Positions 1,860 to 31,140 of a DNA stretch of 64,000 nucleotides are shown here, in pieces. A program made the translations under genes and the position numbers. The stretch's first letter is position 1; every line of letters begins with the position of its first letter. Origin of the DNA: Thermoplasmatota archaeon (GTDB lineage Archaea > Thermoplasmatota > E2 > JACPAO01 > JAHFTW01); assembly GCA_041601615.1 (NCBI GenBank), contig JBFIHX010000005.1, forward strand, positions 40,774 through 104,773, written 5' to 3'. The notes below the pieces were generated by a model, which searched no databases, was not told the origin of the DNA, and was given only the letters and a program-made list of their open reading frames with translations.

Positions 1860-1860
1860 G

Positions 1861-1985
1861 TCGCAATCGGACCCTTTTCCCTTCCCTTTCCTTTCCCTCC
1901 CGCCTTGGTTTAGGTTTCCATTTCCCCATTTCTCGTTCCCATTTTTGCTCCCTTTCGTCCTCCGCGTGGCCCCCTTGCACGCAAT
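1861..1985 (+). terminator. Polypyrimidine (C/T-rich) low-complexity tract downstream of a + strand gene; possible archaeal terminator or spacer
   Basis: ccttttcccttccctttcctttccctcccgcc...tttccccatttctcgttcccatttttgctccctttcgtcctcc. Similar tracts recur after other gene ends (11021-11065, 33901-33947, 50271-50382, and on the minus strand at 15741-15778). Confidence 0.25.
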
Positions 1986-2027
1986 CATGGCCAGCTCAAT
2001 TAGGGGGTCTTGGTCCAAGTGGGGGCA

Positions 2028-2975
2028 ATGTTAGAATCTCGAACCTCGGTCGATGGCCTCAAGTCCGGTGCTTTATCCTGCCATTTGGTGCCAATCTACG
2101 AGGCCTGGGGGCTGAGCTTTTCCTCATCCGAATCATTGCCCGGGATGCGGCTTGGCAAAGGCACGCCCGAGTTGACCATCCATGCCGGAGCAGTTCCCGC
2201 GTCCCTGGGCCCGGGAGCCACGGTGGGCCGCGACTTTGAAGCAACTTCCAGTGCCTACTTGTTTCGAATCCCCGAGGTGGCAGATTTTCTCGTCGAGAGA
2301 GACGCGGGAATCACCTACGCCCCTGCCCCCGGCGTCGAGGAAGGTGTCGTGGAACTGTTTCTGTTTGGCTCCGCCATGGGTGCCCTTCTACACTTGCGAG
2401 GCATTCTGCCCCTGCATGCAAGCGCCGTCGAAATCAACGGCAAAGCGGTCCTGTTTACTGGAGATTCAGGGGCCGGAAAATCGACCACGGCCTACGCCTT
2501 TGGCCTCGCAGGCTGCCCCATCCTCTCCGACGACGTGGCCGGCATCCACCTCATTGACGGCCACGCAACCGTCGTGCCCGGCTTAGAGCGCCTCAAACTC
2601 TGGAACCATGCCCTCTCGGGACTGGGCAAAGCCGAAGAGGCAAAGGAGCCCGTTCCGTCGGTTTTGGACAAATTCTTCGTCGGGCGGCCCCTGGGAGCCA
2701 GCGGTCCTGCCCCCGTAGATTGCATGTATGTCCTCCAAAGCCGGCCAGAACCGGGAATTCTCATCGAGGACCTGCAAGGCGCCGAGAAATTCATGGCCCT
2801 GCAACGCAATGTCTACCGGCCGGCATTCATGGATGCCATCGGCAGCCACGGAGCATCCTTTGGAGTTCTTGCAACGATGGCGCAAAACCATCCCATCAAG
2901 CGACTCTCCCGACCCGAAGACGGCTTCAGCATCGACGAGGTCGTGGCTGCCGTGCGCCAGGATCTTCGCGAGTAA
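2028..2975 (+). CDS. HPr-kinase-related serine kinase, of the type found in lasso-peptide clusters
   Basis: Resembles the HprK C-terminal kinase domain, with a P-loop GDSGAGKST. Encoded directly upstream of PqqD-like B1 and B2. Start uncertain: TTG at 2010, ATG at 2028 or ATG at 2145. Confidence 0.65.
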   Translation: MLESRTSVDGLKSGALSCHLVPIYEAWGLSFSSSESLPGMRLGKGTPELTIHAGAVPASLGPGATVGRDFEATSSAYLFRIPEVADFLVERDAGITYAPAPGVEEGVVELFLFGSAMGALLHLRGILPLHASAVEINGKAVLFTGDSGAGKSTTAYAFGLAGCPILSDDVAGIHLIDGHATVVPGLERLKLWNHALSGLGKAEEAKEPVPSVLDKFFVGRPLGASGPAPVDCMYVLQSRPEPGILIEDLQGAEKFMALQRNVYRPAFMDAIGSHGASFGVLATMAQNHPIKRLSRPEDGFSIDEVVAAVRQDLRE

Positions 2976-3081
2976 GGATGGCGCAAGGCGTGCGTGCTGA
3001 TTGTCTTGCTTGGCGCAACCGTTCCCCGCTCCCTGCGCAGGCGTTAAGCAAGGAAGCCCCACTGGGTGATTTGTGAGCATA

Positions 3082-3354
3082 ATGGCTGGCACTGCTCGTC
3101 GCGCCCCCGATGTGCTGTCTGCACCCGTCGGCGACGAAGTCATCTTGTTGCACAGCCCAACGGGCCAATACTTCTCGATGGATGAAATTGGTCGCGCAAT
3201 CTGGGACCGACTGGGGACGGAGCCATGCAATTTGGAGCAACTCTGCAAGGACCTGCAACGGGAATTTGACGTGGACGCGAAGACGTGCCGAAACGACGTG
3301 GAAGCGTTTCTAGAATCCCTGCACGCGGCCGATTTCATCGTGGTCGAGTCTTGA
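3082..3354 (+). CDS. PqqD-family RiPP recognition element (lasso B1)
   Basis: About 90 aa of PqqD-like sequence (DEVILLHSPTGQYFSMDEIGRAIWDRL...LEQLCKDLQREFDVD...VEAFLESLHAADFIV). Stop overlaps the next start (ATGA). Confidence 0.75.
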   Translation: MAGTARRAPDVLSAPVGDEVILLHSPTGQYFSMDEIGRAIWDRLGTEPCNLEQLCKDLQREFDVDAKTCRNDVEAFLESLHAADFIVVES

Positions 3355-3830
3355 TGGGGCCCTGGCGCCGGTACCGGCGGCTCTCCGTGGAGCGGAAGCG
3401 GCTACTGCGTCGAGCGCTCAGAGCCGTCTTGGTCGCATCGCTTCAAGTGCGCTTAGAGGGGTACCCAAAGTGCATGAGGCACCTAGGCACAGCGGGGCCT
3501 CCCACGGACCCATCCGGTCAAACCCATGCGCAGGCACACGAGGTTCGGTGGGCCGTGCGACGTGTTCGAGACGCTCTGCCTTGGACCGTGACTTGTCTGA
3601 TGGAAGCAATTGCCGCCCAGAATCTGCTTTCGGGTGTCGAATGCGTCACCATCGTGGGCGCCAAAAGGGGCTCAAAACTGGAGATCCATGCTTGGCTCAT
3701 ACAGGGAACGCTGCAAGTGACGGGTTGGCCCATTCAAGCTGAATTTGCGCCCATTGCTGCCTATCGATGGCAACGAGCTGGCGCCGCGACGGACGGCCCG
3801 AGCCGCCAAAACGGGGGCGTCAAGCAATGA
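3354..3830 (+). CDS. Lasso-peptide leader peptidase B2 (transglutaminase-like cysteine protease)
   Basis: 158 aa. Arg-rich N-terminus, conserved Cys (WTVTCLMEAIAAQNLL) and His in an HAW motif (LEIHAWLIQG), as in lasso B2 proteins. Coupled by ATGA overlaps to B1 upstream and GNAT downstream. Confidence 0.7.
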   Translation: MGPWRRYRRLSVERKRLLRRALRAVLVASLQVRLEGYPKCMRHLGTAGPPTDPSGQTHAQAHEVRWAVRRVRDALPWTVTCLMEAIAAQNLLSGVECVTIVGAKRGSKLEIHAWLIQGTLQVTGWPIQAEFAPIAAYRWQRAGAATDGPSRQNGGVKQ

Positions 3831-4474
3831 AATTCACCATTCGACCGGCCGTGGCCGAGGACATTCCCGACATCGCAGCCCTCTCTCGGGCAACGCTTCC
3901 GTACTTGTCGAGCAATCAGAAGGGGGTCGAATCCTCGGAAAGCGCCCACTGCCGCATCCTGAAAACCCCGGGAAGCATTGTCCTCGTCGCGGAAACGGAC
4001 GGGACCATCACGGGTTTCATGGCCGGCTATGGTTCACGCGCAAGCCAAGTTGCGGCCTATGGCGAGGCTCAACCGCCTCCGCTAAGCTTGCCTCCAGCGC
4101 TCTCGGCACGCCCCTTGGCCTTCGCAAAATACTGGAAACGGCGACTCCAGACGCGCTTGCGTCGGATTCGACATCGAACGTGCGCGCACATCTGCGAGGC
4201 GGCAGTAGATCCGTCGGTGCGCGGGGGCAGAACCAGCATCGCCCTTTTTCATGCTTGGAAGGATAAGGCCTGGCAACAAGGCAGTCGGGGCATTCATTGT
4301 CGCTGCATCGAAAGCAAGGCCCCGGGAGCCTTCCACATTTTGTTGCACCTCGGCTTTGTGGTGCAAGGCGTGCGCCATCTGGGCGACTCTGAGTTGACGA
4401 CGCTTACATTGCATCGTGATCCCAGAGCGAAATCCACTCCGCCAAGGCGAAAAGAAGGTGTGGGTAGAGAATAA
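3827..4474 (+). CDS. GNAT-family N-acetyltransferase
   Basis: MKFTIRPAVAEDIPDIAAL... with an acetyl-CoA-binding-like core. ATGA overlap with B2. Confidence 0.7.
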   Translation: MKFTIRPAVAEDIPDIAALSRATLPYLSSNQKGVESSESAHCRILKTPGSIVLVAETDGTITGFMAGYGSRASQVAAYGEAQPPPLSLPPALSARPLAFAKYWKRRLQTRLRRIRHRTCAHICEAAVDPSVRGGRTSIALFHAWKDKAWQQGSRGIHCRCIESKAPGAFHILLHLGFVVQGVRHLGDSELTTLTLHRDPRAKSTPPRRKEGVGRE

Positions 4475-4491
4475 AGTGCTTTAAGCACTTT
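4473..4491. terminator. Perfect 9-bp inverted repeat (aaagtgctt t aagcacttt) between convergent operons; bidirectional terminator-like hairpin
   Basis: Lies immediately after the GNAT stop (4472-4474) and about 65 nt downstream of the minus-strand precursor stop. Confidence 0.4.
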
Positions 4492-4555
4492 CAAGGAGTC
4501 TGAAACGTCACATTGTTGGTGGTTTCATGGTGGGTCTGAGACAATCCTCCACAAA

Positions 4556-4675
4556 TTAGGAGGGGGTGTACTTGTAGGTGCCTTCCACATCTGGGTCAGC
4601 GCCACCAAGCGGCGCAAGCTTACCCTCCATTCGAAGTTGCGGGGCTTTCCAGGGTCGGTTTTGGATTGGATCCAT
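4556..4675 (-). CDS. Candidate lasso-peptide precursor (A), 39 aa: MDPIQNRPWKAPQLRMEGKLAPLGGADPDVEGTYKYTPS
   Basis: Small ORF, too short for the >=60-aa track, sitting 25 nt downstream of the cyclase stop on the same strand. Predicted core GGADPDVEGTYKYTPS has Gly1 and Glu8 (or Gly1/Glu7 if the core starts at the second Gly), bulky Y/K/Y plug candidates and a C-terminal Ser. An alternative start at the internal Met would give 24 aa. Confidence 0.55.
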   Translation of the reverse strand: MDPIQNRPWKAPQLRMEGKLAPLGGADPDVEGTYKYTPS

Positions 4676-4696
4676 ACTATGGCTAATATGGATGCT

Positions 4697-4702
4697 CTTT
4701 TA
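4697..4702 (-). promoter_or_regulatory. TATA-like box (TAAAAG on minus strand) about 25 nt upstream of the precursor ATG; possible leaderless precursor transcript
   Basis: Minus strand reads c-taaaag-agcatccatattagccatagt-ATG. The box overlaps the cyclase stop codon. Confidence 0.25.
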
Positions 4703-6586
4703 GCTGTTGTTTTCGCCGCGAGGGGTATCGCGGTCCAGCCAATCCAGCATGCGAGCAACCCGCGTGAGGTTCAACAAACTGCCCGCAACCCTAGGACCGT
4801 TGCCTTCTGGGATGCTGCCATCTTCGTTCCATTGCTCCCGGATCGACTGCCATGCCTGCACCAACGCGTCCACATCCACATAACTCCCCACTAGGCCATG
4901 GCGCGGCAGCTCGTCAACGATGGATTGAATTCTTGCAATCGCCTGCAGAAAATAGCCAGCCACCCAAGGGTTGGGCATTTGTTTGTCCGTGCGCCATTGA
5001 ATGGACTCCGGCAAAATGTCCTGCATAGCCGTTCGAAAAAGACCCCTCCCAATGCCCCGGATCAACTGGTATTCCAAGGGCACCGCAAGTGCAAATTCGA
5101 CCAGCCGTCGATCCATCATCGGATACCGAAACTCCACGCCATGGTACGCTGCCGAACCAGAATCCGTAACCGCTCGCGCGCCGCAATGACCATCGTCAAG
5201 CTGTTTTCGCCGCAAGTCCCCCCCAGCACTTTTTCCATACACCCGAGGGGCGGCATCTACGCGAGAACGAGCCCGGAACTCCTTGTCCACGAGCGCCTGA
5301 ATCGAAGGCCAGCCATCAGGAATGATCTCGGCACGAGGCCTCGCGGCACGAACAATACGCACCAGGGTCCGCCACAAGGGAACGCCGGTGGCAAGAGACC
5401 GTTGTCGGGCAAACCGGACGACTCGAATCCATCGACCCTTGCGCACCCATGAATGAACCAAGCCGCGTGCATGGGATGATGCAAATTCATCGCCCCCGTA
5501 TCCCGACAGCAGCACCGTACAGCCATCCTGTGCCGCCAATTTTGCCGGTCCCTCTGCCATGAATCCTATTTCCTGCTCCGCTGCCAGCGGGGATCTGCCA
5601 TGGTCCTCAAAAATCATACTTGCGGGCGACGAAACGGGAGAAAACTGGATGTTGCCCGCCTTGACCACGGTCTCCATGTGCCGGCGCTCGTCGACCCCAT
5701 TGGGATCGTGGTCATCTGGCAGCACCAACCCATAGGCCCGCAGCGGATTATCCGCCTCCCGTTCGCGAGCCGCAAGTAAGGCGATGGCGCTCGAATCGAT
5801 GCCGCCGCTCAATTGCGTCGCAACACCTGGACCGGATCGGCACAACACCGCCTCGACCATCAGTTCCCGAAGCCTCGCTTCGCACGCGGACCTGGTTCGA
5901 TAGGCGCTTGCCGCCTTAGGATTGGGTCGCCAATACGTCCGTGGCTCTTCCCCGCCGCCTGGGCCGATTTCTACGTCCTGCGCCTGCCGCAATGCCTGTA
6001 CGCCGTCAAGGGGGTGAATGTCGACGAAGGAGCCTTCCGTGCGCAATCGACTCGCCATCCAAGCCTCCGAAATGCGTTTTGGCACTCCTTCCAGAAAGCA
6101 AAACGCATTCATTTCGGTCGCAGCCATCACGCCCCCGGGTACCAGGGCAAAATAGACGGGCCGCACCCCGATGGCGTCCCGCGCCATCCACAGCACTTTG
6201 CGCGTGGAATCCCACAGGGCAATGGCAAACTCTCCGATGAGGCGCTTTGCAGCGTCTCGGCCCCATCGCTGGTAGGCGTGTAGCACCAATTCGTGGTCGT
6301 TTGGTTGCTCTTGCAGGCCTAGTTGCGCCGCCACTTCGCTGCGGTTGTCGATCCGGATGTCTCCGGTCACCGACAACGGGCCAAGGGATGCAATCTGCGG
6401 CTTCCTCATGCCGTATGGAGGCACCGTGGCATGGAACCCCAGAAACACGCCCGCATGGTTTGTACTCGTGGACCAAGGTCGCCCGCCGGCATGGTGCGCC
6501 ATGGACTGGAACGCCGGGACTGGATCAATCTCTGTGGATGACGGCACCCAGGCCAGAAACGAACTCATGCCAACGCGATGTCCCAA
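4700..6586 (-). CDS. Asparagine-synthetase-like lasso cyclase (C); forms the isopeptide macrolactam
   Basis: AsnB-like domain with PP-loop SGGIDSS and a conserved C-terminal synthetase region. Sits between the ABC exporter and the precursor. Confidence 0.8.
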   Translation of the reverse strand: MGHRVGMSSFLAWVPSSTEIDPVPAFQSMAHHAGGRPWSTSTNHAGVFLGFHATVPPYGMRKPQIASLGPLSVTGDIRIDNRSEVAAQLGLQEQPNDHELVLHAYQRWGRDAAKRLIGEFAIALWDSTRKVLWMARDAIGVRPVYFALVPGGVMAATEMNAFCFLEGVPKRISEAWMASRLRTEGSFVDIHPLDGVQALRQAQDVEIGPGGGEEPRTYWRPNPKAASAYRTRSACEARLRELMVEAVLCRSGPGVATQLSGGIDSSAIALLAAREREADNPLRAYGLVLPDDHDPNGVDERRHMETVVKAGNIQFSPVSSPASMIFEDHGRSPLAAEQEIGFMAEGPAKLAAQDGCTVLLSGYGGDEFASSHARGLVHSWVRKGRWIRVVRFARQRSLATGVPLWRTLVRIVRAARPRAEIIPDGWPSIQALVDKEFRARSRVDAAPRVYGKSAGGDLRRKQLDDGHCGARAVTDSGSAAYHGVEFRYPMMDRRLVEFALAVPLEYQLIRGIGRGLFRTAMQDILPESIQWRTDKQMPNPWVAGYFLQAIARIQSIVDELPRHGLVGSYVDVDALVQAWQSIREQWNEDGSIPEGNGPRVAGSLLNLTRVARMLDWLDRDTPRGENNS

Positions 6587-6746
6587 TGCAGGCCCTTAAG
6601 CAAATCGATAGGCGGCGCATTGCAACTCAGCATGAGGACTGGGACCTTGCAAGGAAATTCAAGCAGGCCCGCACGCCCACACGCACCGCCCCGTACCTGC
6701 CCCAACGAACGCACAGTGGTTCTGCGTGCCCGCCAGAGCAAGCGCG

Positions 6747-8429
6747 CTACGCCTCGGAATTTGGTTCTGGGTCGTAGATTTGGCCATCGCGCAATGCAAC
6801 GACGCGATCCACGCTGCGAACCGTCGAATCCCGATGCGACACAACGACCACCGTCACGCCCGACAAGGAATGCAAAATCTCCTGGAACGCTTCCTCGCCC
6901 TCTTGATCCCAGTTGCTGGTCGGTTCATCCAACACGAGCAAGCGAGGCCGCCGCGCCAGCGCCATGGCCAATGCAATTCGTTGGGCCTGGCCACCGGAAA
7001 GTGCTTGGGCGTGCTGGCCCAACTCAGTGTCAAGGCCCTGGCGCGTCGCAAGAAAATCGCAGCCCGCTCGGTCCAGTGCCTCTTGAAAATCCTGGTCCGT
7101 TGCCTGCGGGGCCCCCCAGGCCATGTTGGTGCGCACGGTGCCGGCAAGAAACACCGGTTGCTGCGGCACGAGCGCAATAGACTGGCGCCACGCGGCACGG
7201 TCCGTCAAGGTGTGGCCATCGATCTCCACATGGCCCGCGTCGGGCTGCACTAGGCCCAGCAGCACCTCAATGAGCGTAGTTTTGCCCGCCCCATTTGGGC
7301 CCGTGATGGCGATTTTTTCACCCCGTTCAAGGACCAAATGGACGCCCTGCAAGGCCCGGACCTCGCCATAGTGCACATGGACATCTAGCAAGCGAATCTG
7401 TTGCTCGAACCGCGGTGCCTCCCCGTCGGCCACGACTTCGGCGGCATTCTTGGCCAGCATCCATGTGTCTTGCAAGCTGTGCCAAGCAGGAGTCACGGCG
7501 ATATGGGCCTGGTAATGCTGGTGGCTTTGCTTGATGCGCGGCAAAATGCGGGCAAACAAGTACAGCAACAACAGAAACGCACCCAATTCCATGGCAAACG
7601 GTACCAACGCTAGGTAGGTAGTCGTCGCCAGCGCAAGCACCGCAATCGTGTCAAAGAGAAACCTGGACGTGGAGCGAACGCGAATCGACTGGACCTGCGT
7701 CGTCAAAATCTGCGGGTCGTGACCAAACGGATGCGTCCCGTAAAACCGCGCTTGCCGGCTTCCCGCCAACCACTGCTCCGTCGCCTCATGCATCCCCACC
7801 ATTCGCTCGGCCATCTCAACACCAATGGCCGCCGAACGACGTGTCCACGGCCGCAAGACCCCAATGGCCAGCACGGCAATCGCAAGCACAATCGCAGTCA
7901 AAGCCGGCGCAACGCGGAACGCCAATGCAATTTGAGCCACCAAGACAACAAGCCCCGACGCCAACGTCAGCAGCAAAAACGTCGCGGCACCTGTGCGGTC
8001 CGCCTCCGTCGTCAAGGCATTCGTGATGGAGCCACGAGACAGCGCTTGCAACTGGCGCCACTCCATGCGGTCCAAATCGTTGCGAAGCTCAGCCCGGATT
8101 TGATCCACAAGATGATGTTGCAACGTCAACGCTACCCGAGCATGCACCCAAGCAAGGCCCGCCAGCGTCACTTGGAGAAACACAAACAGTCCCAGCGCCG
8201 CAAGCAAACCGGGCTTCAAGCCCACCCAATCCAACACCCGCACAAACGCGGCAGACACAGGGGCCAGTCCCGATCCCGTATCGATGCCGACGGTGCTGAG
8301 CAACGGAATGAGCGACAGAAGCGACGCGCCCTCCACCAAGCCCATGGCGACAAGCAACACGAAAGAAGCCAAGGTCCGTCCAGGAACGAGCCTCCACAAC
8401 TCGGCCAAAAGCGAGCGACGGTCCACCAC
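6747..8429 (-). CDS. ABC transporter, fused permease/ATPase (lasso D exporter, McjD-like)
   Basis: N-terminal 6-TM domain. Walker A GPNGAGKTT, signature LSGGQAQRIALAMAL, Walker B LLVLDEPTS. Confidence 0.8.
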   Translation of the reverse strand: MVDRRSLLAELWRLVPGRTLASFVLLVAMGLVEGASLLSLIPLLSTVGIDTGSGLAPVSAAFVRVLDWVGLKPGLLAALGLFVFLQVTLAGLAWVHARVALTLQHHLVDQIRAELRNDLDRMEWRQLQALSRGSITNALTTEADRTGAATFLLLTLASGLVVLVAQIALAFRVAPALTAIVLAIAVLAIGVLRPWTRRSAAIGVEMAERMVGMHEATEQWLAGSRQARFYGTHPFGHDPQILTTQVQSIRVRSTSRFLFDTIAVLALATTTYLALVPFAMELGAFLLLLYLFARILPRIKQSHQHYQAHIAVTPAWHSLQDTWMLAKNAAEVVADGEAPRFEQQIRLLDVHVHYGEVRALQGVHLVLERGEKIAITGPNGAGKTTLIEVLLGLVQPDAGHVEIDGHTLTDRAAWRQSIALVPQQPVFLAGTVRTNMAWGAPQATDQDFQEALDRAGCDFLATRQGLDTELGQHAQALSGGQAQRIALAMALARRPRLLVLDEPTSNWDQEGEEAFQEILHSLSGVTVVVVSHRDSTVRSVDRVVALRDGQIYDPEPNSEA

Positions 8430-8452
8430 GCGCTGGCACCGAGTCTCGTTGT

Positions 8453-9550
8453 TTAGTCCCTCGGACCCTGATTCCTGCCCGTCCGCATCAACTTGCGCAC
8501 AAGGCGCAGCACAGAGGAGCCATGCGCCGAGCTGCTGGAATCAGCAATGGCATCGTCCAAACTAGGCACCATGACTCGGTTCCACGCATACCGAAACTGC
8601 TTGCCCGGCCGAATCCAAGCCTGGTACGCAAAATCCGTGGTGTTGCGCCACGGAAACGCAGACTCTTCCAGCCAGCCCGCACGAATTCGACGAGCCCATC
8701 GCCGAACCGAACGGGAATCCGCACGCCAGGCCACCGGCGACGAGCCCGGCTCCAGCACCTCCAAACACGCGGCAGTCAACGCCAAAATACGACGCGGTAC
8801 CACCACGTGCTCCGCGTCCTCTGGCCACATCTTGGTCCATTGCAAAATGTCACTCAGCCACAATAGCCTACGAAACGCCGATCCAGCCCCATGCAACACG
8901 AGATGAGACAACGCCGCCGAGCCCTGGGCCACTTGAATCGAGTGCCCCAGCAACTGCACGGAGGCAGCCGAGGAGAACACATTCGGCTCCTCCAGCAAAA
9001 AATTCCTCGTAAACAGCGACCAATGAACCTCTACCAGCACCGGGCCCCGCCGGACCGCAAACGCATTCGATCCCAACCGAACCCGAGGATCATCCAACCG
9101 CAGATCATGCACGGCTTCGAACCCGCCCGCCGCGAGCGCCAAAATCGCCGCCTCCACTTGTTCCGGTCGCACAAGCACATCCACGTCATGGCATGCCCGC
9201 CGCGTCGGGTCCGCGTACAAGAGCTGCGACAGCGCCGGCCCTTTCACAAAGACATGTGGGACACCCTCCAACAACGCAGCGACCTGAGAAACCGCCGCCG
9301 CCATCGCCAACGCCGTGCGAGTCCCCTCCCAATCCACATGCGCATCCAACCGATGCTTGCCCAGCGTAGCCTCGGCGTCCCTCGCCTCCAACCACGCTCG
9401 ACAAACCTCAAGACCACCCACCACAACACGGGCACAACCCGAGACAGAAATGGCTTTGCGCACCCAGGAACACGAAGCAAAGCCGTCGTCGCAAGCGGCC
9501 GCCTCGTTGGCAAAACCCGCCACGAAGCTCGCCAAACCGTCCACAGCCAC
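8453..9550 (-). CDS. Nucleotidyltransferase-family protein of the kind co-occurring with kinase-type lasso clusters
   Basis: 365 aa; the region HDVDVLVRPEQVEAAILALAAGGFE... resembles the uncharacterised nucleotidyltransferase family seen next to HprK-like kinases in lasso clusters. Family assignment is from memory and not checked. Confidence 0.5.
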   Translation of the reverse strand: MAVDGLASFVAGFANEAAACDDGFASCSWVRKAISVSGCARVVVGGLEVCRAWLEARDAEATLGKHRLDAHVDWEGTRTALAMAAAVSQVAALLEGVPHVFVKGPALSQLLYADPTRRACHDVDVLVRPEQVEAAILALAAGGFEAVHDLRLDDPRVRLGSNAFAVRRGPVLVEVHWSLFTRNFLLEEPNVFSSAASVQLLGHSIQVAQGSAALSHLVLHGAGSAFRRLLWLSDILQWTKMWPEDAEHVVVPRRILALTAACLEVLEPGSSPVAWRADSRSVRRWARRIRAGWLEESAFPWRNTTDFAYQAWIRPGKQFRYAWNRVMVPSLDDAIADSSSSAHGSSVLRLVRKLMRTGRNQGPRD

Positions 9551-9802: not shown

Positions 9803-10231
9803 ATGGCAACGGGAATCAACGCCGCCAGGAAGCTGAAGAACGACCGGCAAAAGTTCCGCTGGTCGGACCGCTACTACAAGCGCCGCGAACTGCGCCTCAA
9901 GGAGAAAGCCGACCCGCTCGGTGGCATCCCTCAGGCCCGCGGCATCGTCGTCGAAAAGGTCGGCATCGAGGCCAAGCAGCCCAACTCTGCCATCCGCAAG
10001 TGCGTGAAGGTGCAGTTGATCCGCAATGGCCGCCAGATCACCGCATTCGCGGTCGGCGACGGCGCAATCAACTACATCGACGAACACGACGAAGTGCTCG
10101 TTGAGGGTATCGGCGGCCGCATGGGCCGTTCGTACGGTGACATTCCTGGTGTCCGCTACAAGGTCATCAAGGTCAACAACACCTCCCTCGACATGCTTGT
10201 CAAGGGCAAGATCGAAAAGCCGATGCGGTGA
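9803..10231 (+). CDS. rps12: 30S ribosomal protein S12 (uS12), archaeal type
   Basis: [22 protein letters not shown]...[27 protein letters not shown] is highly conserved archaeal uS12. Confidence 0.95.
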
Positions 10232-10890
10232 TCACGATGACTGACGAATCTATCATTCAGACGGAAGAACAGCTCGCGGAGGTCGCCGCAGAGGAGACCG
10301 CACCCGAGGAGCCCGTGGTCGTCCTGCCCGAGACCCCCCTCTTTGGTAAGTACGGCGCCGACGGCATCGAGATCCGCGACGTGGGCCTGGCCCGCTACAT
10401 TCGCCTCGAACTGGTCGGCTTGCCCCACAGCAGTGCTCGCCACGCCAACCGACGCTTTGCCAAGCAACGCGTCAACATTGTCGAACGCTTGATCAACAAC
10501 GTCATGCGCTCGGCTGCGTACAACGGCAAGAAGGGCAAGGCGTACAAGGTCGTCGAGGACGCTTTCGAGCGCATCGCCGAGAAGACCAAGGACAACCCGA
10601 TCCAGGCCCTAATCCGCGCTGTGGAGCACTCCGCTCCTCGCGAAGAGGTCACCCGCCTGCGCTACGGTGGCATCAACGTCCCCAAGGCCGTCGATGTTTC
10701 GCCCATGCGCCGTCTCGACATCGCTCTGCGCAACCTCGCAAAGGGTGGACTGGCTGGCTCCCACAAGAGCACCAAGCCCGCCGCCCACTGCCTCGCCGAT
10801 GAGATCATGAAGGCCGCCAAGGGCGACCCCGGATCCTTCTCGGTCGGTAAGAAGGACGAGCTTGAGCGCGTCGCCAAGTCTGCTCGCTAA
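10228..10890 (+). CDS. rps7: 30S ribosomal protein S7 (uS7)
   Basis: Conserved uS7 sequence (...[35 protein letters not shown]...). GTG at 10228 overlaps the S12 stop; the first ATG is at 10237. Confidence 0.95.
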
Positions 10891-11540: not shown

Positions 11541-11754
11541 TGAGGTGGGCTGGTGGCGCTGGTTGTTGCGGTCAGGGGTTTCCCGCGTCAAGGATGGGGG
11601 TGGAATGGGGCCTTGGGGCGCCGTGCTTCTTGTCCCGTGGCCCGGAGCGTCGAAGTCGCGGCTAAGTATCTCCGGATTAGATAGATCGGGATAGATAGAT
11701 AAGAACCACAGCCATCAGCCTAAAACGTACTGAACATTGTGGGACGCGATCGTC

Positions 11755-14700
11755 ATGCGAAAAATCATGGTCGTTTTCCTCGCTCTGCTGCTTCTGGCCA
11801 CTCCGTTGGCCGTTGCCCACAAATCCAACCACGAGATGCAGCACCAGGCGTGCGACGTGATGTGGATGACGCCCCATGGGCATGGCCCAGACGACGGCCA
11901 TCGACACGAACACGACCCGGACATAGCCGGCCCGGAGCACAAGGATCTGCACAACCACGACCCTTGCAACCAGAGCCGAATGACCTACCCGGACTACGAA
12001 AGTGTCGCGCCCATCACGGAAATAGATCCGCCGACCAAGGAGTTGGATCCGGAAGAAATCATCTGGAACGACAACGACGCGACCAACTCCGAGGTGTACA
12101 TCGGAGGCGAAGCGTACCAATTCCCCATCGCTCCCGGAACGTTCCAGGAGATCGATTCGCTGGTCATCAGCAGCAACGCTGACGCCGCTGCCCTCGCCGC
12201 CGCCGGAGTCATCAGTGGCACCGGCGACGAGGACGACCCTTACGTCATTCAGAACCTTATCGTGGGTCGTGCACTCATCATCAGTGACACGGACAAGTGT
12301 TTCGTGGTCAAGAACAACATTGTTGTTGATCGCGTGGTCGAAGCGCCCATCGTGCCGGACCCCGACGACCTCATTAATGTCACCAAGTTGATTCGTGAGC
12401 TCATCGAATTGATCGACGGGCTCCTGGCAGACATTGCCGAATACTTGGGCATCACGGAAGAACTGGAAGCGGCCCGCGCCCTCTGGGACGAGAACGCCAC
12501 AATCTGGGAAAACGAGAAGCTTGTGTGGGATGCCGAAGCGGCCGCCAAGCAAGCGCAATTGGCCAACATGAACGCCCGGTCTGCCTCCTACGACGCCCAA
12601 CTAGCGCAATGGCAACAGGATATCGCCAATTACGAGGGCAATTACCTCAATTCGATTGGCATCACTGAGCAACTCGCCTCCGACTTTGAATACTACATGG
12701 AGCAAATCCTCGGCTTCGACCCCACAACCGTGACGCAGCCGACCAAGTCGCACCAGCAATTCATCAACAACGGCCAAGTAGTCGACATAGGCGCGCTCCA
12801 GGACAGCTTCGAATCCTACCAGGACGATGCCAGCAAACTCATTGGCGCCGTCAGCGAGACCGGTCAGAATCCCTCTGAGACCAACTTTGACGTGCGCGAC
12901 ATGATCGACGAAAACCCGCCCGGTGCGACCCCGCCGGCCGGCTACTCCGGCTCCGACTGGAGCTCCGATTTGGCGCAATACGACGACTACCGTCAATGGA
13001 TCTTGGACGAAGTGACCAGCTACTGGGGCACCTTGAAGGCGGACGAGCCGGATTACGATGGTTTTGCCGCGTTCATGGAGGAGTACAATGGATTCCAGGA
13101 GGAGTACGCTGCCTTCATGGGAGAATACAACAGCTTCACGGCCAGCCACACGGCCTTCCAGAACGACTTCAATGCCTTCATGGACGACTACAGCAGTTTC
13201 CTCGCCTCGAACGCCGCATCCCTGGACGAATACAACGCCCTGATTGCCGACGCCGAGGCCGACATCGCGGACGCAGAAGCGCTCATCGACACCGTGCAAG
13301 GATTCGCCTGGAAACTGGGCGACCTCTTGTTCGAAACCATCGATCAAGTCCTAGAGCACCTCTTGACGCTCATCTTCGGCCTCATCGACCCACACGACCC
13401 GCACGAAGTGGCCAACAACAACGGCCAATTGGTGCTTGACTGGAACGGCCAGTGCCTGCACGTCTACAACAACGTGATCAACGACTTGCGCGTCAACCAG
13501 AACAACGATCGCACCGGCTTTGCCACCGGGGGCATCCTGGAGAACAATCGCATCTTTACGATTGGCCAGATCCGCCACTACGACGGCATCTTCCGCGACA
13601 ACGAAGTAGGCAACCGAGCCCACTTGTACAGTCTGATTGATCCGAACATCACCGCGCCGACAAACGACCAGTCGGTCAACAACGATGGCGCCAACCAAGG
13701 CTGGTACTTTGACAACGTCATCTACGGACAAGTGGACCTTGACTTCCACGGACACCACCACTCGGCGGGCTTCTTTGCCCCCGAGAGCCACTTCCATGGC
13801 TCGGTGTACCGTGAAGCCTACATGGTCAACACCGACGGTTCCTGCAAATTCACCCACGACGATCTGATGCCGATGCCCGGGCACCACCAGATGCACGAGA
13901 GCGACAACGACTTCGAGGTGCTGGGCGAAACCATCATTGATGGCCCGGACAACGAACCTTGCCTGCCGCATCATGACCACGGCAAGCGCTGGACATCCGT
14001 GTTTTTCAACGACAATGTGATCATTGATCCAAACGGGCTTGGTCTGCGTTTCGAAGACGAAAACCACCGCGCCGACGACGAGCAAGCGAACTCGGAGAAC
14101 ATGCGCGAGCTCAAGAAGCCGCACTTCCACCAGAAGTGGGTCCAAGTGGAAAACAACACGGTCGTGGGCAAAATCTTCATTGATGTTCTCAACGCCAAGG
14201 GCACGTTCCTGTGGAGCGACGACTGGAGCGAGGTGGAGAACACGGCCGGCATCGAACGCAGCATCGAGGCGTTGGATCACCCGGGTGCTCGCATCGCCTA
14301 CAGCCACCCGATGCGCAACGACGCCTGGCTGGATATCCAAAACAACACGGTGCTCCAGACGCAGAGTGTTGGTGTCTTGGTGTCGGATGCGGAGTTCATG
14401 ACGAAGCTTCAGTTGAACAACAACCGCGCTGTGGGCGCGCCGACCTCGATCTCGGGCTACAGCTTCGAAGCGCTGCGCGATTGGCTCTGGAATGCCCGGT
14501 ACGCTTCGGCCGCCTCGATTGCGGACGACGTGGACGACATGGGTTCCGGTGACCGCGGCGTGCAGAACTTTGTGCTCGTGCGCAATGCAATCGACAAATT
14601 CAACGTAGTCTTCTGTGGCAACACGCTGCACCGCTTGGACGGCAGTCTTGTGGCAACGGATCGGATCTACCAGGACGGTGCCAGCACCATCGATTACGAC

Positions 14701-14925
14701 TGTACCTCGGACAACGACGATGATGGTCTCAAGGCCAATGAATTGGGCACGGCTGCTTCGCCGCTCGTTGCTTGGGTGCCTGCGCCGGATCGGGCTCGGT
14801 TCACGGACGGGTTGCGCGAGTTGACGCACGACACGGACTCGTTCTACCTCCTGGAACTGGCGTTTGACATGGCCGACGCATTGCTGCCGGCGCACCCGGA
14901 AGACGCGCTCCCGGTGGAGACGTGA
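11755..14925 (+). CDS. Large, highly acidic secreted protein (about 1,056 aa), hypothetical
   Basis: Signal peptide MRKIMVVFLALLLLATPLAVA. Extremely Asp/Glu- and His-rich, with coiled-coil-like repeats (EYNGFQEEYAAFMGEYNSF...). No recognised catalytic motif. Confidence 0.6.
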   Translation: MRKIMVVFLALLLLATPLAVAHKSNHEMQHQACDVMWMTPHGHGPDDGHRHEHDPDIAGPEHKDLHNHDPCNQSRMTYPDYESVAPITEIDPPTKELDPEEIIWNDNDATNSEVYIGGEAYQFPIAPGTFQEIDSLVISSNADAAALAAAGVISGTGDEDDPYVIQNLIVGRALIISDTDKCFVVKNNIVVDRVVEAPIVPDPDDLINVTKLIRELIELIDGLLADIAEYLGITEELEAARALWDENATIWENEKLVWDAEAAAKQAQLANMNARSASYDAQLAQWQQDIANYEGNYLNSIGITEQLASDFEYYMEQILGFDPTTVTQPTKSHQQFINNGQVVDIGALQDSFESYQDDASKLIGAVSETGQNPSETNFDVRDMIDENPPGATPPAGYSGSDWSSDLAQYDDYRQWILDEVTSYWGTLKADEPDYDGFAAFMEEYNGFQEEYAAFMGEYNSFTASHTAFQNDFNAFMDDYSSFLASNAASLDEYNALIADAEADIADAEALIDTVQGFAWKLGDLLFETIDQVLEHLLTLIFGLIDPHDPHEVANNNGQLVLDWNGQCLHVYNNVINDLRVNQNNDRTGFATGGILENNRIFTIGQIRHYDGIFRDNEVGNRAHLYSLIDPNITAPTNDQSVNNDGANQGWYFDNVIYGQVDLDFHGHHHSAGFFAPESHFHGSVYREAYMVNTDGSCKFTHDDLMPMPGHHQMHESDNDFEVLGETIIDGPDNEPCLPHHDHGKRWTSVFFNDNVIIDPNGLGLRFEDENHRADDEQANSENMRELKKPHFHQKWVQVENNTVVGKIFIDVLNAKGTFLWSDDWSEVENTAGIERSIEALDHPGARIAYSHPMRNDAWLDIQNNTVLQTQSVGVLVSDAEFMTKLQLNNNRAVGAPTSISGYSFEALRDWLWNARYASAASIADDVDDMGSGDRGVQNFVLVRNAIDKFNVVFCGNTLHRLDGSLVATDRIYQDGASTIDYDCTSDNDDDGLKANELGTAASPLVAWVPAPDRARFTDGLRELTHDTDSFYLLELAFDMADALLPAHPEDALPVET

Positions 14926-15785: not shown

Positions 15786-16910
15786 TTAGATAAGCGCCAT
15801 TTGGTAGCCGTTGCCGGTTGCGGCTTGGTGTTCAAGGGTGTACAAGTGGTACATGTGGCCCTCGGCAACACCCATGTTGTTGACGTCGAACACGAAGATC
15901 AGGAACTCGATGCCGTTGTTGATCACGGCAAAGTTGGCGCTGCTTGGGACCGATGCTTCGAGCACTGCCCGCTTGGCGCACGCGGTCAAGTCGGTGTCGC
16001 AGCAGCGGTTTGGATCCAATTGGCAGGGCACATGCATGGCCCAGGCGAGCGGCAGGACGGGAGCGTAGAGCACTTCGACGTTGATGGTGTCTGTGCGGCT
16101 CTTGCCGGGCACGCATCCAAAGAATTCAGCATCGTATTCTAGGCACACTTGTGCGCTGGCAATGGATTGGACGTAGCCCGTGTCGGCGGCGGCTTGCACT
16201 TGGAATCCGTGTGCTTCGTGGACGAACTCCAGCATGAATTTGATGACGATGTTGCAGATTCCGGGTTGCCCTACGATGCCGAAGCCGATGCGGTCGTCAC
16301 GGAAATCCATGAGATTTCCGGCGGTTTCGTTGTCGTGGTTGCCGCCCTTGGTGTAGCGCTCTAGGGAGTTGAGCGCCAGTGTGGGTGCAAGCATGTCGTG
16401 GACTTGCCCATCGATGCAGTCTGCTTGTAGGGTGACAAATTCCATGCCGCGCGAGGTTTGTCGCGCGGTCCACTGGTTGGTGCCTGTGGGTTGGGGAGCC
16501 TCGCCTGCTTCTCGATCCAAACTTGGGAACCATCCGTCTCCAGGTTCGATCCAGAATGCGATGGGTTTGAACATATCCGCAGTAATGTGGACCGTGCCGT
16601 TGACAAAGCCTCGTTGTTTTTCTTGCAGTTGCGGCAGCAGGGCATCGGTGGGTGCGTGGGCGATGCCGCTGTCGCGAAGATCTTCGACATCCTGGGCCAT
16701 GGGGTCGTCGGGGGTTCCCATGGTCAGATCCTGACCTATGCGGCTGATGGTCCAATCGATGGTCGTTTGGGATGTCTCAAGCACGGAGCGTTCCAGTTTT
16801 TGTGTGCTGGATGGGTTCAGCTTGAGGGCCACGCCGGTTACGAGTGGGACCGCGAGTGTGGCCGCGACCAGGAGGGCGAGTGTCATCTTTTGTTTCTGAT
16901 TCATGTTCAT
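15786..16910 (-). CDS. Secreted protein (374 aa), hypothetical; coupled to the giant protein by an ATGA overlap
   Basis: Signal peptide MNMNQKQKMTLALLVAATLAVPLVTGVA. Its ATG overlaps the TGA of the 4,717-aa ORF (caATGAacATGA on the minus strand). Confidence 0.55.
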   Translation of the reverse strand: MNMNQKQKMTLALLVAATLAVPLVTGVALKLNPSSTQKLERSVLETSQTTIDWTISRIGQDLTMGTPDDPMAQDVEDLRDSGIAHAPTDALLPQLQEKQRGFVNGTVHITADMFKPIAFWIEPGDGWFPSLDREAGEAPQPTGTNQWTARQTSRGMEFVTLQADCIDGQVHDMLAPTLALNSLERYTKGGNHDNETAGNLMDFRDDRIGFGIVGQPGICNIVIKFMLEFVHEAHGFQVQAAADTGYVQSIASAQVCLEYDAEFFGCVPGKSRTDTINVEVLYAPVLPLAWAMHVPCQLDPNRCCDTDLTACAKRAVLEASVPSSANFAVINNGIEFLIFVFDVNNMGVAEGHMYHLYTLEHQAATGNGYQMALI

Positions 16911-19900
16911 TGCCTCTTGAAAGCGACCACGTCGTCGTACCATCCAACGCCGCGGCCGCTTCTGCCGGCGTCTGGACTTGGGAAAACATCTCCGACGCCT
17001 ATGCGCTTGTCGGAGCCGGTTGTGATGGAGCTGGTGAAGGTGGAGTTGGTGTCATCGTCCAAGGTGACGGCGACGGAAGTGGAGGTCACTTCGACGCGGA
17101 CGAAGTGCCATTCCTTCTCGTTCTTGAGGCAGACGCCGCCTTCGCTGATGCGGGTGTTGCCGTTGTAGAGGTGGACGCGCCAGTCGCCGGCGTCGCAGTC
17201 GATTTCTTGGGAGGGTCCAAGAGTGACGGCCCAGCGGGGTGCGTCGTCGCTCTTGAGCCCGGATAGGATGGCCTGATGTTCTGGTTTGTTCAGGCTGTCC
17301 CCGATAGCGAAGGCGGCCTCGACGGTGTATTTGGAGCCGAGTCCGGTGGTTGGGAAGGAGGCGTAGGTGCGGCCGCCGGGGGATGTGGCTCCGGTGACTT
17401 GCAGGTAGCCGTTGCCTAGGAATCCGGATCCAGCGTAGGTCTTGAGGCCGCTGCCGGTTTCGGACCAACCGAATGCGGTGAGGGGTTGCACGAAGGTGTG
17501 GTCGTGTCGGCTGGTGTCCATGTCGATGCGTAGGCGATCGATGTCGACGGTGTTGGCGCCGCCGCCCGCTTCCACGGTTGCTGCGGGGCCGTCGGCGTGG
17601 AGGGGCACCCAGACGGAGGAGAGTTGGTCTCGTTGGATGAGGGCGTGGCCGTGGCGGATGAAGATGTCAAAGCGGTGCCAGCGGCTGTCGACGGAGCTGA
17701 GGATGGTCCAGTTTCCGTTGCCTTCTTCCACTTCGAGGGTGCTGTAGCGGACGCGGGCGCGTACCATCATGTCTCCGTCGTCGTTGCGCACGGTGAAGAC
17801 GGGGTCTTCGATGGCTGGTTTGGCTTTGATGCGGAATGTCAGGTGCGAGGAGGACGGCAGATCTACGGGAGGGCTCTTGGCGGCGAGGGTGTGGCCGGAG
17901 TCTGGTTGGATGGAGAGGTAGGTGGGTCCTCCGGCGGTGCCGAGTGTGTTGGTGTCTTGGAGGGTTCCTTGACCGATGGGTTGCCAGCCGTCGCCGCCGA
18001 GGATGGGTTGGTCTTCCAGTAGGTTGCGCAGGTCCGAATCGAGGAGGCTCACTTTGGGTGCGGTCCACATGGCGGATGCTGATTGCACGCGTGTGGATTC
18101 CAGCCGGATGGGGCCGGAGAGCGGTAGGGAGCCGAGGTATGTTTCGTCCAGGAACGCTTCCATGCGTCCGTCGGCGGCTATGAGGTCGAAGCGGTACCAC
18201 TGGGATTTGAGGGTGATGTTGCCGATGGCGATGCTTTGGTTTCCTACGGTCAGCGTTAGGGTGTTGCTGGCGTAGCGGAGGTGGGCGATGTCTCCTTCGT
18301 CGCCTTCGAGGGCTAGGAATTCGGTGCTTCCGGGGTTGGTTCCGGGGTTGCTCCATTGGGTCACGGTCAGCAATGCGGAGTGCGCGGCGAGGGGTGTGTG
18401 TAGGGATCCGCCGTAGGTGTAGCCAAGTTTCTGGGATGTTCCGTCGGGTCCGTAGCCGTTGTAGTAGTTGTGGGCGTTGCCTTGGGGTTGCATTTGTGCA
18501 ACTTGGGGTTGGATGCCGTCTTTGGCGAAATGGAAGGAGTGGCGCCATGCTGTGCTGCGGCCGTTGTTGGCGGTCACGAGCAGGGTCACTTCCTCTTGTT
18601 GGTCTTCGTCAAGGTCAATGGTTGCTTCGTAGCGGTTGCTGCCGACGGAGGTGAAGCTGATGGGTCCGAGCCGGCTGGTGGCTTGGATGTCCATGGTGGC
18701 GTCCGGGTGGGGTGGGGTGATTTCGAGGGCGAGCGTGAACACGCCGGGGTCGGTTTCGCTGGACCAGATGGTGGTGCCGGGCGTTGAGACGGAGGCGACG
18801 TGGCCGCTTACGGGCAATCCGAGGTCGCCGGAGCCGAGGCGGGTGGTGCCGGCAAAGCTTGGACTCAGGAGTCCGATGCTCGGTAGTTCGGCGTTCACGA
18901 AGATTTCGAGGACTTGGCAGGTGCCGGGGTTGCCTGCTTGGTCGACGGGGCAGAGGGTGTAGGTTGCCAGTTCGTTCGTGGGGGGCGTTGTGTCTTCGTA
19001 GCGGCTGGCGTGGGTCCAGGTTTCGTTGCTGGTGCCGCTGGTGCTTGTGCGTTGCACGAGGATGTGGCTAGGGTTGCGCTCGGCGAGGGTGTAGTCGATG
19101 CCGACGGTGCCGGATTCGTAGTTGATGCTGTTTGCGTCGAGGAGGGGGGCGGTGCGGTCTCCTTCGACTTGGCCTAGGTATATTTCGAGTTCGTTGGCGG
19201 CGCCATCGAGGACGCGGACGTAGGCTTGGAGGGCTTGGTTTTCGAGTTCGGCGGGGATGTCGAGCAGCGTTCCGGGGCCGGCGGTGATGAGCGGTGTGCT
19301 GTTGGCGTCGGGTCGTAGTTCGATGGCGTTCCAGGTGATGCCGGTGTCGACGGCGCCTTGGTCGTCAAGGGCGGTCCAGGTTTGGTTGATGCCGGCGGCT
19401 CCGATGAGGGCGGGGAGGCTTGGTGGGTCCTGGATTGCGGGGGCCACGAGGTCGATGACGAAGGCGGAGGAATGGTTGGTCCAGGTGTGGCCGGCGCCGT
19501 CTTGGCCGTGCAGAACGAGTTGGACTTCTTGGCCGTGGAAGCGGGTGTACTTGGTGTCGTTTAGGTGGATGGTTTCGTGGATGGTCAGGGTTTGGTTGCC
19601 GGATTGGGTCTGGATGGGTTCTGTGTCGCTGCCGTCGGTGGTTTGTAGGAACAACTCGAAGGTGATGGCTTCGCAGCCGCCGCTGACGAGTTGGCCGGCG
19701 GCGATGATGGGGCGGTAGCCGATGGCTTCGCCCATGGCTTGGATGTTGTTTCCGACTTCGCGGAAGAAGCCGTCGAGGCCGGGGAGGGGGTTGCCGAGGG
19801 GGTGGCGGCGGTCTACGACGACGAGGGTGGCGCCGGAGAGGAGGATGTTGCGTTCTTCTTCGGGCATGTTTTGGAGTTGGACTTGGGTCCAGTGTTCGCC

Positions 19901-31045: not shown

Positions 31046-31140
31046 GGGGACACCGGCCAAGAAACGCCCACCGGGGGCCCGACGCCGCGCATGCGCGATG
31101 GTCGAGACCAGAAGGCTACCGCAACATCCGGGGATGCTAC

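Follow-up and report, generated by a model that had tools for sequence, protein, structure and literature searches.

A probable phosphorylating-type lasso-peptide gene cluster of bacterial ancestry in a Thermoplasmatota archaeon

A stretch of 64,000 nucleotides from a Thermoplasmatota archaeon (GenBank assembly GCA_041601615.1, contig JBFIHX010000005.1, positions 40,774 to 104,773 of the forward strand; hereafter the window) was analyzed around a kinase gene near its left end. Based on all comparisons, it was concluded with a probability of roughly 0.65 that the eight genes at window positions 2010-9550 form a lasso-peptide cluster of the paeninodin/pseudomycoidin type, which the archaeon acquired horizontally from bacteria. 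Within this cluster, phosphorylation of the terminal serine of the precursor (A) by the HprK-like kinase (K) is likely, because 50 of 50 bacterial precursors encoded between a cyclase gene (C) and a homologous kinase gene end in serine, and the only serine of A is also its last residue. Further elaboration of the phosphate by a nucleotidyltransferase-family protein (N) is possible by analogy with a bacterial system.

Bacterial enzymes of these kinase and nucleotidyltransferase families are known to phosphorylate the last serine of the precursor and, in one studied case, to glycosylate it after that (PMC6993621). The pair formed by such a kinase and a PF14907 tailoring protein has so far been studied in bacteria only. 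No characterized archaeal lasso peptide was found in the searched literature, where the papers mention predicted archaeal clusters only. The locus has four unusual features, namely its archaeal host, a proline at position -2 of the leader, an orphan open reading frame (ORF), X, coupled to the leader peptidase gene B2, and a kinase of a clade that is normally partnered by a sulfotransferase.

The gene set and the kinase

The sequence-only reading of this DNA had placed the kinase and nucleotidyltransferase genes alongside lasso core genes. This arrangement was recovered, with B1, B2, the precursor, C and the exporter lying between 2028-2975 (+) and 8453-9550 (-). The genes form two convergent operons, K-B1-B2-X on the forward strand and N-D-C-A on the reverse strand:

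2010/2028-2975, +, K, HprK-like lasso-peptide kinase
3073-3354, +, B1, PqqD-type recognition element for peptides made on the ribosome and modified after translation (RiPPs); ATG 3082 is an alternative start
3354-3830, +, B2, transglutaminase-like peptidase for the leader, with an ATG that overlaps the stop codon of B1
3827-4474, +, X, orphan ORF of 215 aa; its ATG overlaps the B2 stop
4556-4675, -, A, precursor of 39 aa, 24 nt downstream of the C stop codon
4700-6586, -, C, lasso macrolactam cyclase resembling Asn synthase; 6502 is the start in the public call
6747-8429, -, D, ABC exporter in which permease and ATPase are fused; 8345 is the start in the public call
8453-9550, -, N, PF14907 nucleotidyltransferase-family protein of 365 aa, 23 nt upstream of D

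All eight ORFs were intact, with neither frameshifts nor internal stops. The kinase gene that had been proposed at 2028-2975 (+) proved to be a real ORF. Solved HprK/P chains (2qmh, 1jb1 and 1ko7) matched it over H..GDSGAGKST..DD with E values of 3e-4 to 3e-3 and 885 homologs were found, the best of them other than K itself at an E value of 7e-48. Outside residues 132-189 the match to the solved chains was not significant. The identity of K to any other protein was 38% at most, and about 30% to the Bacillales kinases. The score against Pfam Hpr_kinase_C (PF07475) was 23 bits (E 6.5e-5), under the gathering score of 33.3, and a bacterial lasso-cluster kinase (L005) likewise fell under this threshold with 27.8 bits.

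Residues of K are numbered here from TTG 2010. H136, G151, S153, G156, K157, S158, T159, D174, D175, R270 and R301 were invariant in K and 22 homologs, and the Walker A motif (G151-T159) was intact. An alignment of the conserved HprK catalytic residues, which the sequence-only reading had suggested as a check, found H136, K157, D174 and D175 all kept. These residues correspond to the His-Lys-Asp-Asp motif of lasso kinases, which is essential according to mutagenesis (PMC9266682), and the Asp pair corresponds to D158/D159 of PsmK, the D158A/D159A form of which is inactive (PMC6993621).

An AlphaFold2 model of K calculated from the homolog alignment had a mean predicted local distance difference test score (pLDDT) of 90.2 and a predicted template modeling score of 0.86. 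Its top fold matches in the PDB were phosphoenolpyruvate carboxykinases (PEPCK) and the L. casei HprK/P, so the model assigns K to the PEPCK and HprK/P superfamily, as expected. The P-loop, the His/Asp-Asp core and the PEPCK-like fold are common to K and HprK/P (PDB 1kkl, 1jb1, 2qmh, 1ko7), whereas K differs in its location in a RiPP cluster and in its presumed substrate, a peptide rather than HPr. Closer assignments were rejected on scores: K is not a true HprK/P (23 against 33.3 bits for PF07475, 25.6 against 240 for TIGR00679), an HprK-related kinase A (TIGR04352; 34.6 bits, cut-off 200) or a SynChlorMet ScmC protein (TIGR04249; 24 bits, cut-off 125). A precomputed match of K to PF27840 (ScmC) was flagged as weak.

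The start codon of K had been described as ambiguous among TTG 2010, ATG 2028 and ATG 2145, and the first two of these were retained. The frame is open from TTG 2010 to 2975 (+), and ATG 2028, which gives a protein of 315 aa, is the public gene call (P0001). ATG 2145 was excluded, since a protein starting there would lose the conserved Y30, G34 and S39 together with two predicted strands. Two other codons had to be added. The N-termini of the homologs align at about residue 26 of K, the modeled residues 1-11 have a pLDDT below 50 and residues 11-20 of about 51 on average, and the first strand starts at residue 29; because of this, TTG 2085 and GTG 2088 are as plausible as ATG 2028 or TTG 2010. 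A start at GTG 2088 would give MPIYEAWGL, which is like the N-termini of the homologs.

The lasso core set, consisting of the cyclase C, the split B1 and B2 and the ABC exporter, is present as judged by family matches. B1 scored 73.9 bits against PF05402 (PqqD), and 55 bits against NCBIfam lasso_PqqD_Bac, which is under the cut-off of 80. B2 matched PF13471 (Transglut_core3) and passed the lasso B2 model NF033537 (54.7 bits, cut-off 33); its residues C81 and H112 were invariant in the comparison with bacterial B2 proteins, with which the 158-aa reading from ATG 3354 aligned end to end. The public automated call of B2, 76 aa from window position 3600, would drop the invariant catalytic Cys81. 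C scored 123.8 bits against Asn_synthase, and its top NCBIfam match was lass_lactam_cya with 270 bits, under the cut-off of 525.

The precursor and the target of the kinase

The small ORF A encodes the 39-aa peptide MDPIQNRPWKAPQLRMEGKLAPLGGADPDVEGTYKYTPS. The sequence-only reading had named a candidate precursor ending in ...TPS, and such an end was indeed seen in A, which in addition carries a leader motif and follows C at a distance of 24 nt. Its sole serine is the C-terminal residue (Ser39, or Ser16 of the predicted core). When all 1190 stop-to-stop segments of the window were searched for the combination of leader motif, ring and terminal serine, only two were found, A being one of them.

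For comparison, a pattern was derived from 13 kinases sharing GDSGAGKST, and a scan of one genome per species with this pattern found 238 kinases related to K. The 80 best loci were compared, and all of them were bacterial, mainly from Paenibacillus and Bacillus with some from Proteobacteria and others. Homologs of the window proteins were encoded in the following numbers of these loci: B1 in 70, C in 68, D in 65, N in 56, B2 in 33 and X in none, those of C and N being counted within 10 kb. The usual bacterial gene order was C-A-K-B1-B2-N-D. Precursors were sought between C and K among small ORFs that carry the leader motif, and nothing was demanded of the C-terminus. One precursor was found in each of 50 loci, and every one of them ended in serine. 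Threonine occupied position 14 from the leader aromatic residue in 50/50 precursors, and an acidic residue was present at core positions 7-9 in 47/50 when the cleavage was placed after position 15.

The leader motif of A is WKAPQL (aromatic-x-x-P-x-L), and the leader of locus L089 has a similar WKAPKL. Application of the 15-residue rule to A gave a leader of 23 residues, MDPIQNRPWKAPQLRMEGKLAPL, and a core of 16 aa, GGADPDVEGTYKYTPS, which begins GGADPDVE and has Glu8 as the only acidic residue at positions 7-9. The predicted product is thus this core with a Gly1-Glu8 ring and an eight-residue tail. The cleavage before GG and Glu8 as the ring acceptor were chosen because the cleavage lies 15 residues away from the leader aromatic residue in 50/50 precursors. 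A register of -16 (core GADPDVE, Gly1-Glu7) is possible, since locus L086 shows a shift of one residue. A core APLGGADPD... with an Ala1-Asp9 ring, similar to AGPGxxxPD cores, was ranked lower, as it breaks the 15-residue spacing of the 50 precursors. For the preferred core, the bare lasso has a predicted [M+H]+ of 1638.728; the predicted value rises to 1718.695 when one phosphate is attached, to 1880.747 when a phosphate and one hexose are, and to 2042.800 when a phosphate and two hexoses are.

Among the systems most similar to that of the window is pseudomycoidin, psmCAKB1B2ND of Bacillus pseudomycoides (PMC6993621). The gene set of C, A, K, B1, B2, N and D, the terminal serine of the precursor, the metal-binding Asp-Asp pair in K, the D-x-D pair in N and the assignment of both N proteins to PF14907 are all shared. 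The differences are the order of the genes, which in the window is rearranged into two convergent operons, the archaeal host, the extra orphan X, the ring (Ala1-Asp9 in pseudomycoidin, predicted Gly1-Glu8 here) and the leader position -2, which is Thr there and Pro here. The paeninodin cluster padeCAKB1B2D of Paenibacillus dendritiformis, considered together with ThcoK and SyanK (PMC9266682), likewise has an HprK-like kinase with His-Lys-Asp-Asp and the aromatic-x-x-P-x-L motif at -15, as in A; however, the pade cluster has no N, whereas N and X are both present in that of the window. The kinases PadeK, ThcoK and SyanK have been studied experimentally, and kinases of the paeninodin type act on the C-terminal serine of the linear precursor (PMC9266682); PsmK and PsmN have been studied as well (PMC6993621).

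It was also considered that K could phosphorylate another hydroxyl group, that of Thr10, Thr14 or a tyrosine. Such a case is offered by the bsf cluster of Bradymonas sediminis, which contains both K and N and in which BsfK phosphorylates ring Ser3, not the C-terminal serine, and accepts the S3T variant (PMC10368454). The bsf cluster also resembles that of the window in having a non-Thr residue at -2 and in the ribosomal protein genes reported at its border. However, BsfA ends in Asp, has its aromatic residue at -17 and Ile at -2, whereas A ends in Ser, as do the 50 relatives, and has the paeninodin-type spacing of -15 and Pro. BsfK, translated from the bsfK gene given in the paper, is distant from K: it scored 46 bits, and the alignment covered no more than the central 89 residues; K aligned with the kinases tied to C-terminal-Ser precursors over about 90% of its length at 110-180 bits. 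In addition, LppK refuses Thr and Tyr. Phosphorylation of another hydroxyl of A is therefore very improbable. A was also tried as a Bsf-type ring-phosphorylated peptide and rejected: with a -17 register, which was ruled out for A, core positions 7-9 would hold no acidic residue, and the core has no Ser3. Since BsfK is so distant and A has neither Ser3 nor the -17 spacing, the C-terminal serine is the best-supported target of K.

The five closest homologs of K with genomic context (P0003, P0005, P0006, P0007 and P0008; 34-37% identity) each had a sulfotransferase (PF00685) gene directly after the kinase gene. The precursors of these sulfotransferase-linked loci (L082, L084, L089, L090 and L091) end in serine and have the 15-residue spacing. 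All of these loci appear to come from bacteria. Most have no N, and the kinase, a sulfotransferase and a PF14907 protein were combined in L090 and L086. No characterization of a kinase-sulfotransferase pairing in lasso clusters was found in the searched literature. As the sulfotransferase-linked precursors also end in serine, K looks like the constant partner of the terminal serine, with N and the sulfotransferase apparently serving as elaborating enzymes, either in place of one another or in addition.

The nucleotidyltransferase-family protein, the orphan X and the proposed route

A nucleotidyltransferase-family gene had been assigned to 8453-9550 (-), and the possibility of an unrelated family had been raised as a point to check. 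N scored 90.4 bits against PF14907 (NTP_transf_5; cut-off 31.2), the family of the N proteins of bacterial C-A-K-B1-B2-N-D clusters, and its D-x-D pair was kept. When N was aligned with 30 N proteins encoded in bacterial loci that contain K, it retained every residue that is invariant over the 31 sequences, including K103, G104, D114, D122, D124, E174, H176, H220, G221, R228, W231 and D234; P105 was likewise kept. D122/D124 align with D134/D136 of PsmN, the mutation of which abolishes the addition of hexose (PMC6993621).

The relatives of N were distant. A word-indexed search of 5.8e9 proteins returned N itself and one weak match only, and 5687 relatives came from an exhaustive search of 1.8e9 representatives with HMMER, the best of which other than N scored 83 bits at 37% identity. 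Of the four nearest relatives of N for which the context was sought, two were located beside RiPP genes. One of these, in L086, shared its locus with a kinase, a sulfotransferase, a protein of the PqqD type and a peptide that resembles a precursor and ends in ...RPS, with capsule genes adjoining, and the other was encoded directly downstream of a B2 gene. The contig of the fourth was too short for the gene context to be read. The remaining one, the nearest relative (P0141; L088, 10001-10939), is encoded among genes of NeuB, a CMP-sugar synthetase, a DegT aminotransferase and an epimerase, and no RiPP genes were found near it in this nonulosonic-acid or nucleotide-sugar locus. The L088 context hints at a further role of PF14907 proteins in pathways of sugars or glycans. 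Taken together, the mixed contexts fit a sugar- or phosphate-related chemistry on RiPPs, without defining it.

X would encode a basic protein of 215 aa with an isoelectric point of 10.2. As a candidate GNAT acetyltransferase, for which AlbT of albusnodin would be a parallel, it gave E values of 0.02-0.04 against three GNAT Pfam families, all under threshold, and no homologs of X were found in 5.8e9 proteins, the PDB sequences or the 91 related loci. A single-sequence AlphaFold2 model of X had a pLDDT of 37. The proposal that X is a degenerate sulfotransferase was rejected, as no similarity to any ORF of the sulfotransferase-bearing loci was seen. X could be a third tailoring enzyme or an immunity enzyme, the predicted core having Lys12, or it could be no gene at all.

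From the characterized bacterial homologs we infer the following route, in all of its six steps. The PqqD-type B1 would first bind the 39-aa precursor through the WKAPQL leader motif; among the characterized homologs, B1 accelerates phosphorylation (PMC10368454). With ATP, K would then place a phosphate, and possibly several in turn, on the hydroxyl of Ser39 (core Ser16) while the precursor is linear. In the third step B2, a presumed Cys81/His112 protease, would cut the 23-residue leader off after Leu23, and in the fourth C would join the amine of Gly1 to the side chain of Glu8 around the threaded tail GTYKYTPS, in which Tyr11, Lys12 and Tyr13 are likely steric plugs. N, with a putative metal site at D122/D124, would elaborate the phosphate by analogy with the PsmN-dependent addition of hexose, and the product would finally be exported by D.

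It was also proposed that K phosphorylates the C-terminal serine as above, and that N catalyzes something other than the addition of hexose: a nucleotidylylation of the phosphate, the transfer of another sugar or sugar-phosphate available in the archaeal cell, or a reaction with something other than a peptide, for example a precursor of a glycan. PsmN itself has no recognizable glycosyltransferase motifs, and its hexose could stem from an enzyme of the E. coli host acting after nucleotidylation. The relatives of N in the nucleotide-sugar locus and beside the capsule genes would agree with this proposal as well. The proposal is opposed by the location of N, which lies inside the cluster just upstream of D, by the co-occurrence of N homologs with K in 56 of the 80 loci, and by the two of the four nearest relatives that adjoin K, PqqD and precursor genes or B2. 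A different chemistry of N is a tentative possibility, and an unlikely one.

Origin of the cluster and its surroundings

The flanks of the window encode archaeal proteins, and the cluster lies between the following genes:

13-654, +, FolD, truncated by the window edge
681-938, -, glutaredoxin
ends at 1859, +, acidic, lipoprotein-like ORF
9803-10231, +, archaeal ribosomal protein S12
10228-10890, +, archaeal ribosomal protein S7

S12 falls into a 90%-identity cluster with proteins of Thermoplasmatota and Thermoplasmata metagenome-assembled genomes, and S12, S7, archaeal elongation factor 2 (aEF-2) and a family B DNA polymerase are all encoded in the flanks. The host is archaeal, as identified by these proteins.

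The GC content at third codon positions (GC3) was 0.57-0.71 in the eight cluster genes and 0.73-0.87 in 11 flanking genes, the two ranges having no overlap, and the island of low GC3 is bounded by the lipoprotein-like gene and S12. The overall GC of the cluster, about 0.59-0.62, matches that of the host, and its tetranucleotide correlation lies within, or just below, the range among host segments. The cluster is probably an island that came from bacteria by horizontal transfer and was inserted just upstream of the genes for archaeal S12 and S7. An old and partly ameliorated acquisition fits these values, because the GC3 is offset but the overall GC and the tetranucleotide usage are near those of the host.

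The same data bear on the possibility that bacterial DNA was joined to archaeal DNA by a misassembly or a binning error, in which case there would be no archaeal lasso cluster. All relatives of the cluster are bacterial and the GC3 differs from that of the flanks, as would be seen in such an artifact. However, the junctions FolD-glutaredoxin and S12-S7 are both present in the 200,547-bp NCBI contig and in a separate 12,592-bp Logan contig, although the two assemblies may share reads. The GC and the tetranucleotides are near those of the host, and no close bacterial copy was found, K being no more than 38% identical to anything. An artifact is therefore extremely improbable.

Several observations weigh against the preferred reading. 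Position -2 of the leader of A is Pro, or Leu if the register is shifted, and Thr is absent from the whole leader, in contrast to the Thr of 50/50 bacterial precursors; because of this, the processing of the leader by B2 may be different or inefficient. No sulfotransferase gene is present in the window cluster, unlike in the loci of the five closest K homologs. N is very divergent, with its 90 bits against PF14907 compared to 204-218 for the Bacillales N proteins and only 37-53 bits when compared with the latter directly. No in vitro activity of PsmN was shown, and its role in glycosylation is uncertain (PMC11912497). Finally, clustering at 90% identity left K, B1, C and D, and even EF-2, as singletons, and no sibling locus was found. 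As for the first of these points, exceptions with Ile or Val at -2 have been validated experimentally (PMC10368454), and a Magnetococcales locus (L032) possibly has Pro(-2) too. Every cluster protein checked was a singleton at 90% identity or grouped only with its own copies.

Some of these observations would also agree with the cluster being a horizontally transferred relic, silent or decaying, from which no mature peptide is made in the archaeon. The cluster stands out as foreign by its offset in GC3, an otherwise invariant Thr(-2) is lost, N is extremely divergent, X is an orphan, there are no sibling loci, and no sigma-70-like or obvious Shine-Dalgarno signals were seen at the cluster. On the other hand, the eight ORFs are intact, all tested invariant catalytic residues of K, N and B2 are kept, and the start-stop overlaps of B1/B2 and B2/X suggest that translational coupling has been maintained. 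The host-like GC and the tetranucleotide usage near that of the host both fit a long residence. A relic was considered decidedly unlikely.

A bolder version of the preferred reading would make this the first archaeal phosphorylating-type lasso pathway, taken long ago from bacteria and since remodeled. B1 and B2 would have adapted to Pro(-2), N would install an archaeon-specific group on the phosphoserine, and X, coupled to B2, would modify the peptide, for instance at Lys12, or serve in self-protection, so that a 16-residue Gly1-Glu8 lasso would carry up to three tailorings. In this full form the proposal is doubtful, and is offered as speculation. The reading of a paeninodin/pseudomycoidin-type cluster in an archaeon would, if true, extend a known system and overturn nothing, and it conflicts with no established knowledge. 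The locus provides a compact and testable archaeal example with exact mass predictions. Its natural Pro(-2) leader would be of use in probing the specificity of B1 and B2, and the divergent, PsmN-like N could help to settle what PF14907 enzymes do.

Rfam and tRNA scans of the window gave no matches, terminator-like matches at the cluster were at chance level only, and no flanking direct repeats, integrase, tRNA or other island-boundary features were seen around it. Upstream of K, positions 1860-1960 (+) form a C/T-rich intergenic stretch in which CCCTTTCC-like motifs are reiterated.

S12, S7 and EF-2 form a compact gene cluster in many archaea. In the window, about 20 kb between S7 and aEF-2 (31554-33755) are filled by two large ORFs, a very acidic one of 1062 aa (11737-14925, +) and a giant one of 4717 aa (16907-31060, -), the sole Pfam match of the latter being a right-handed beta-helix.

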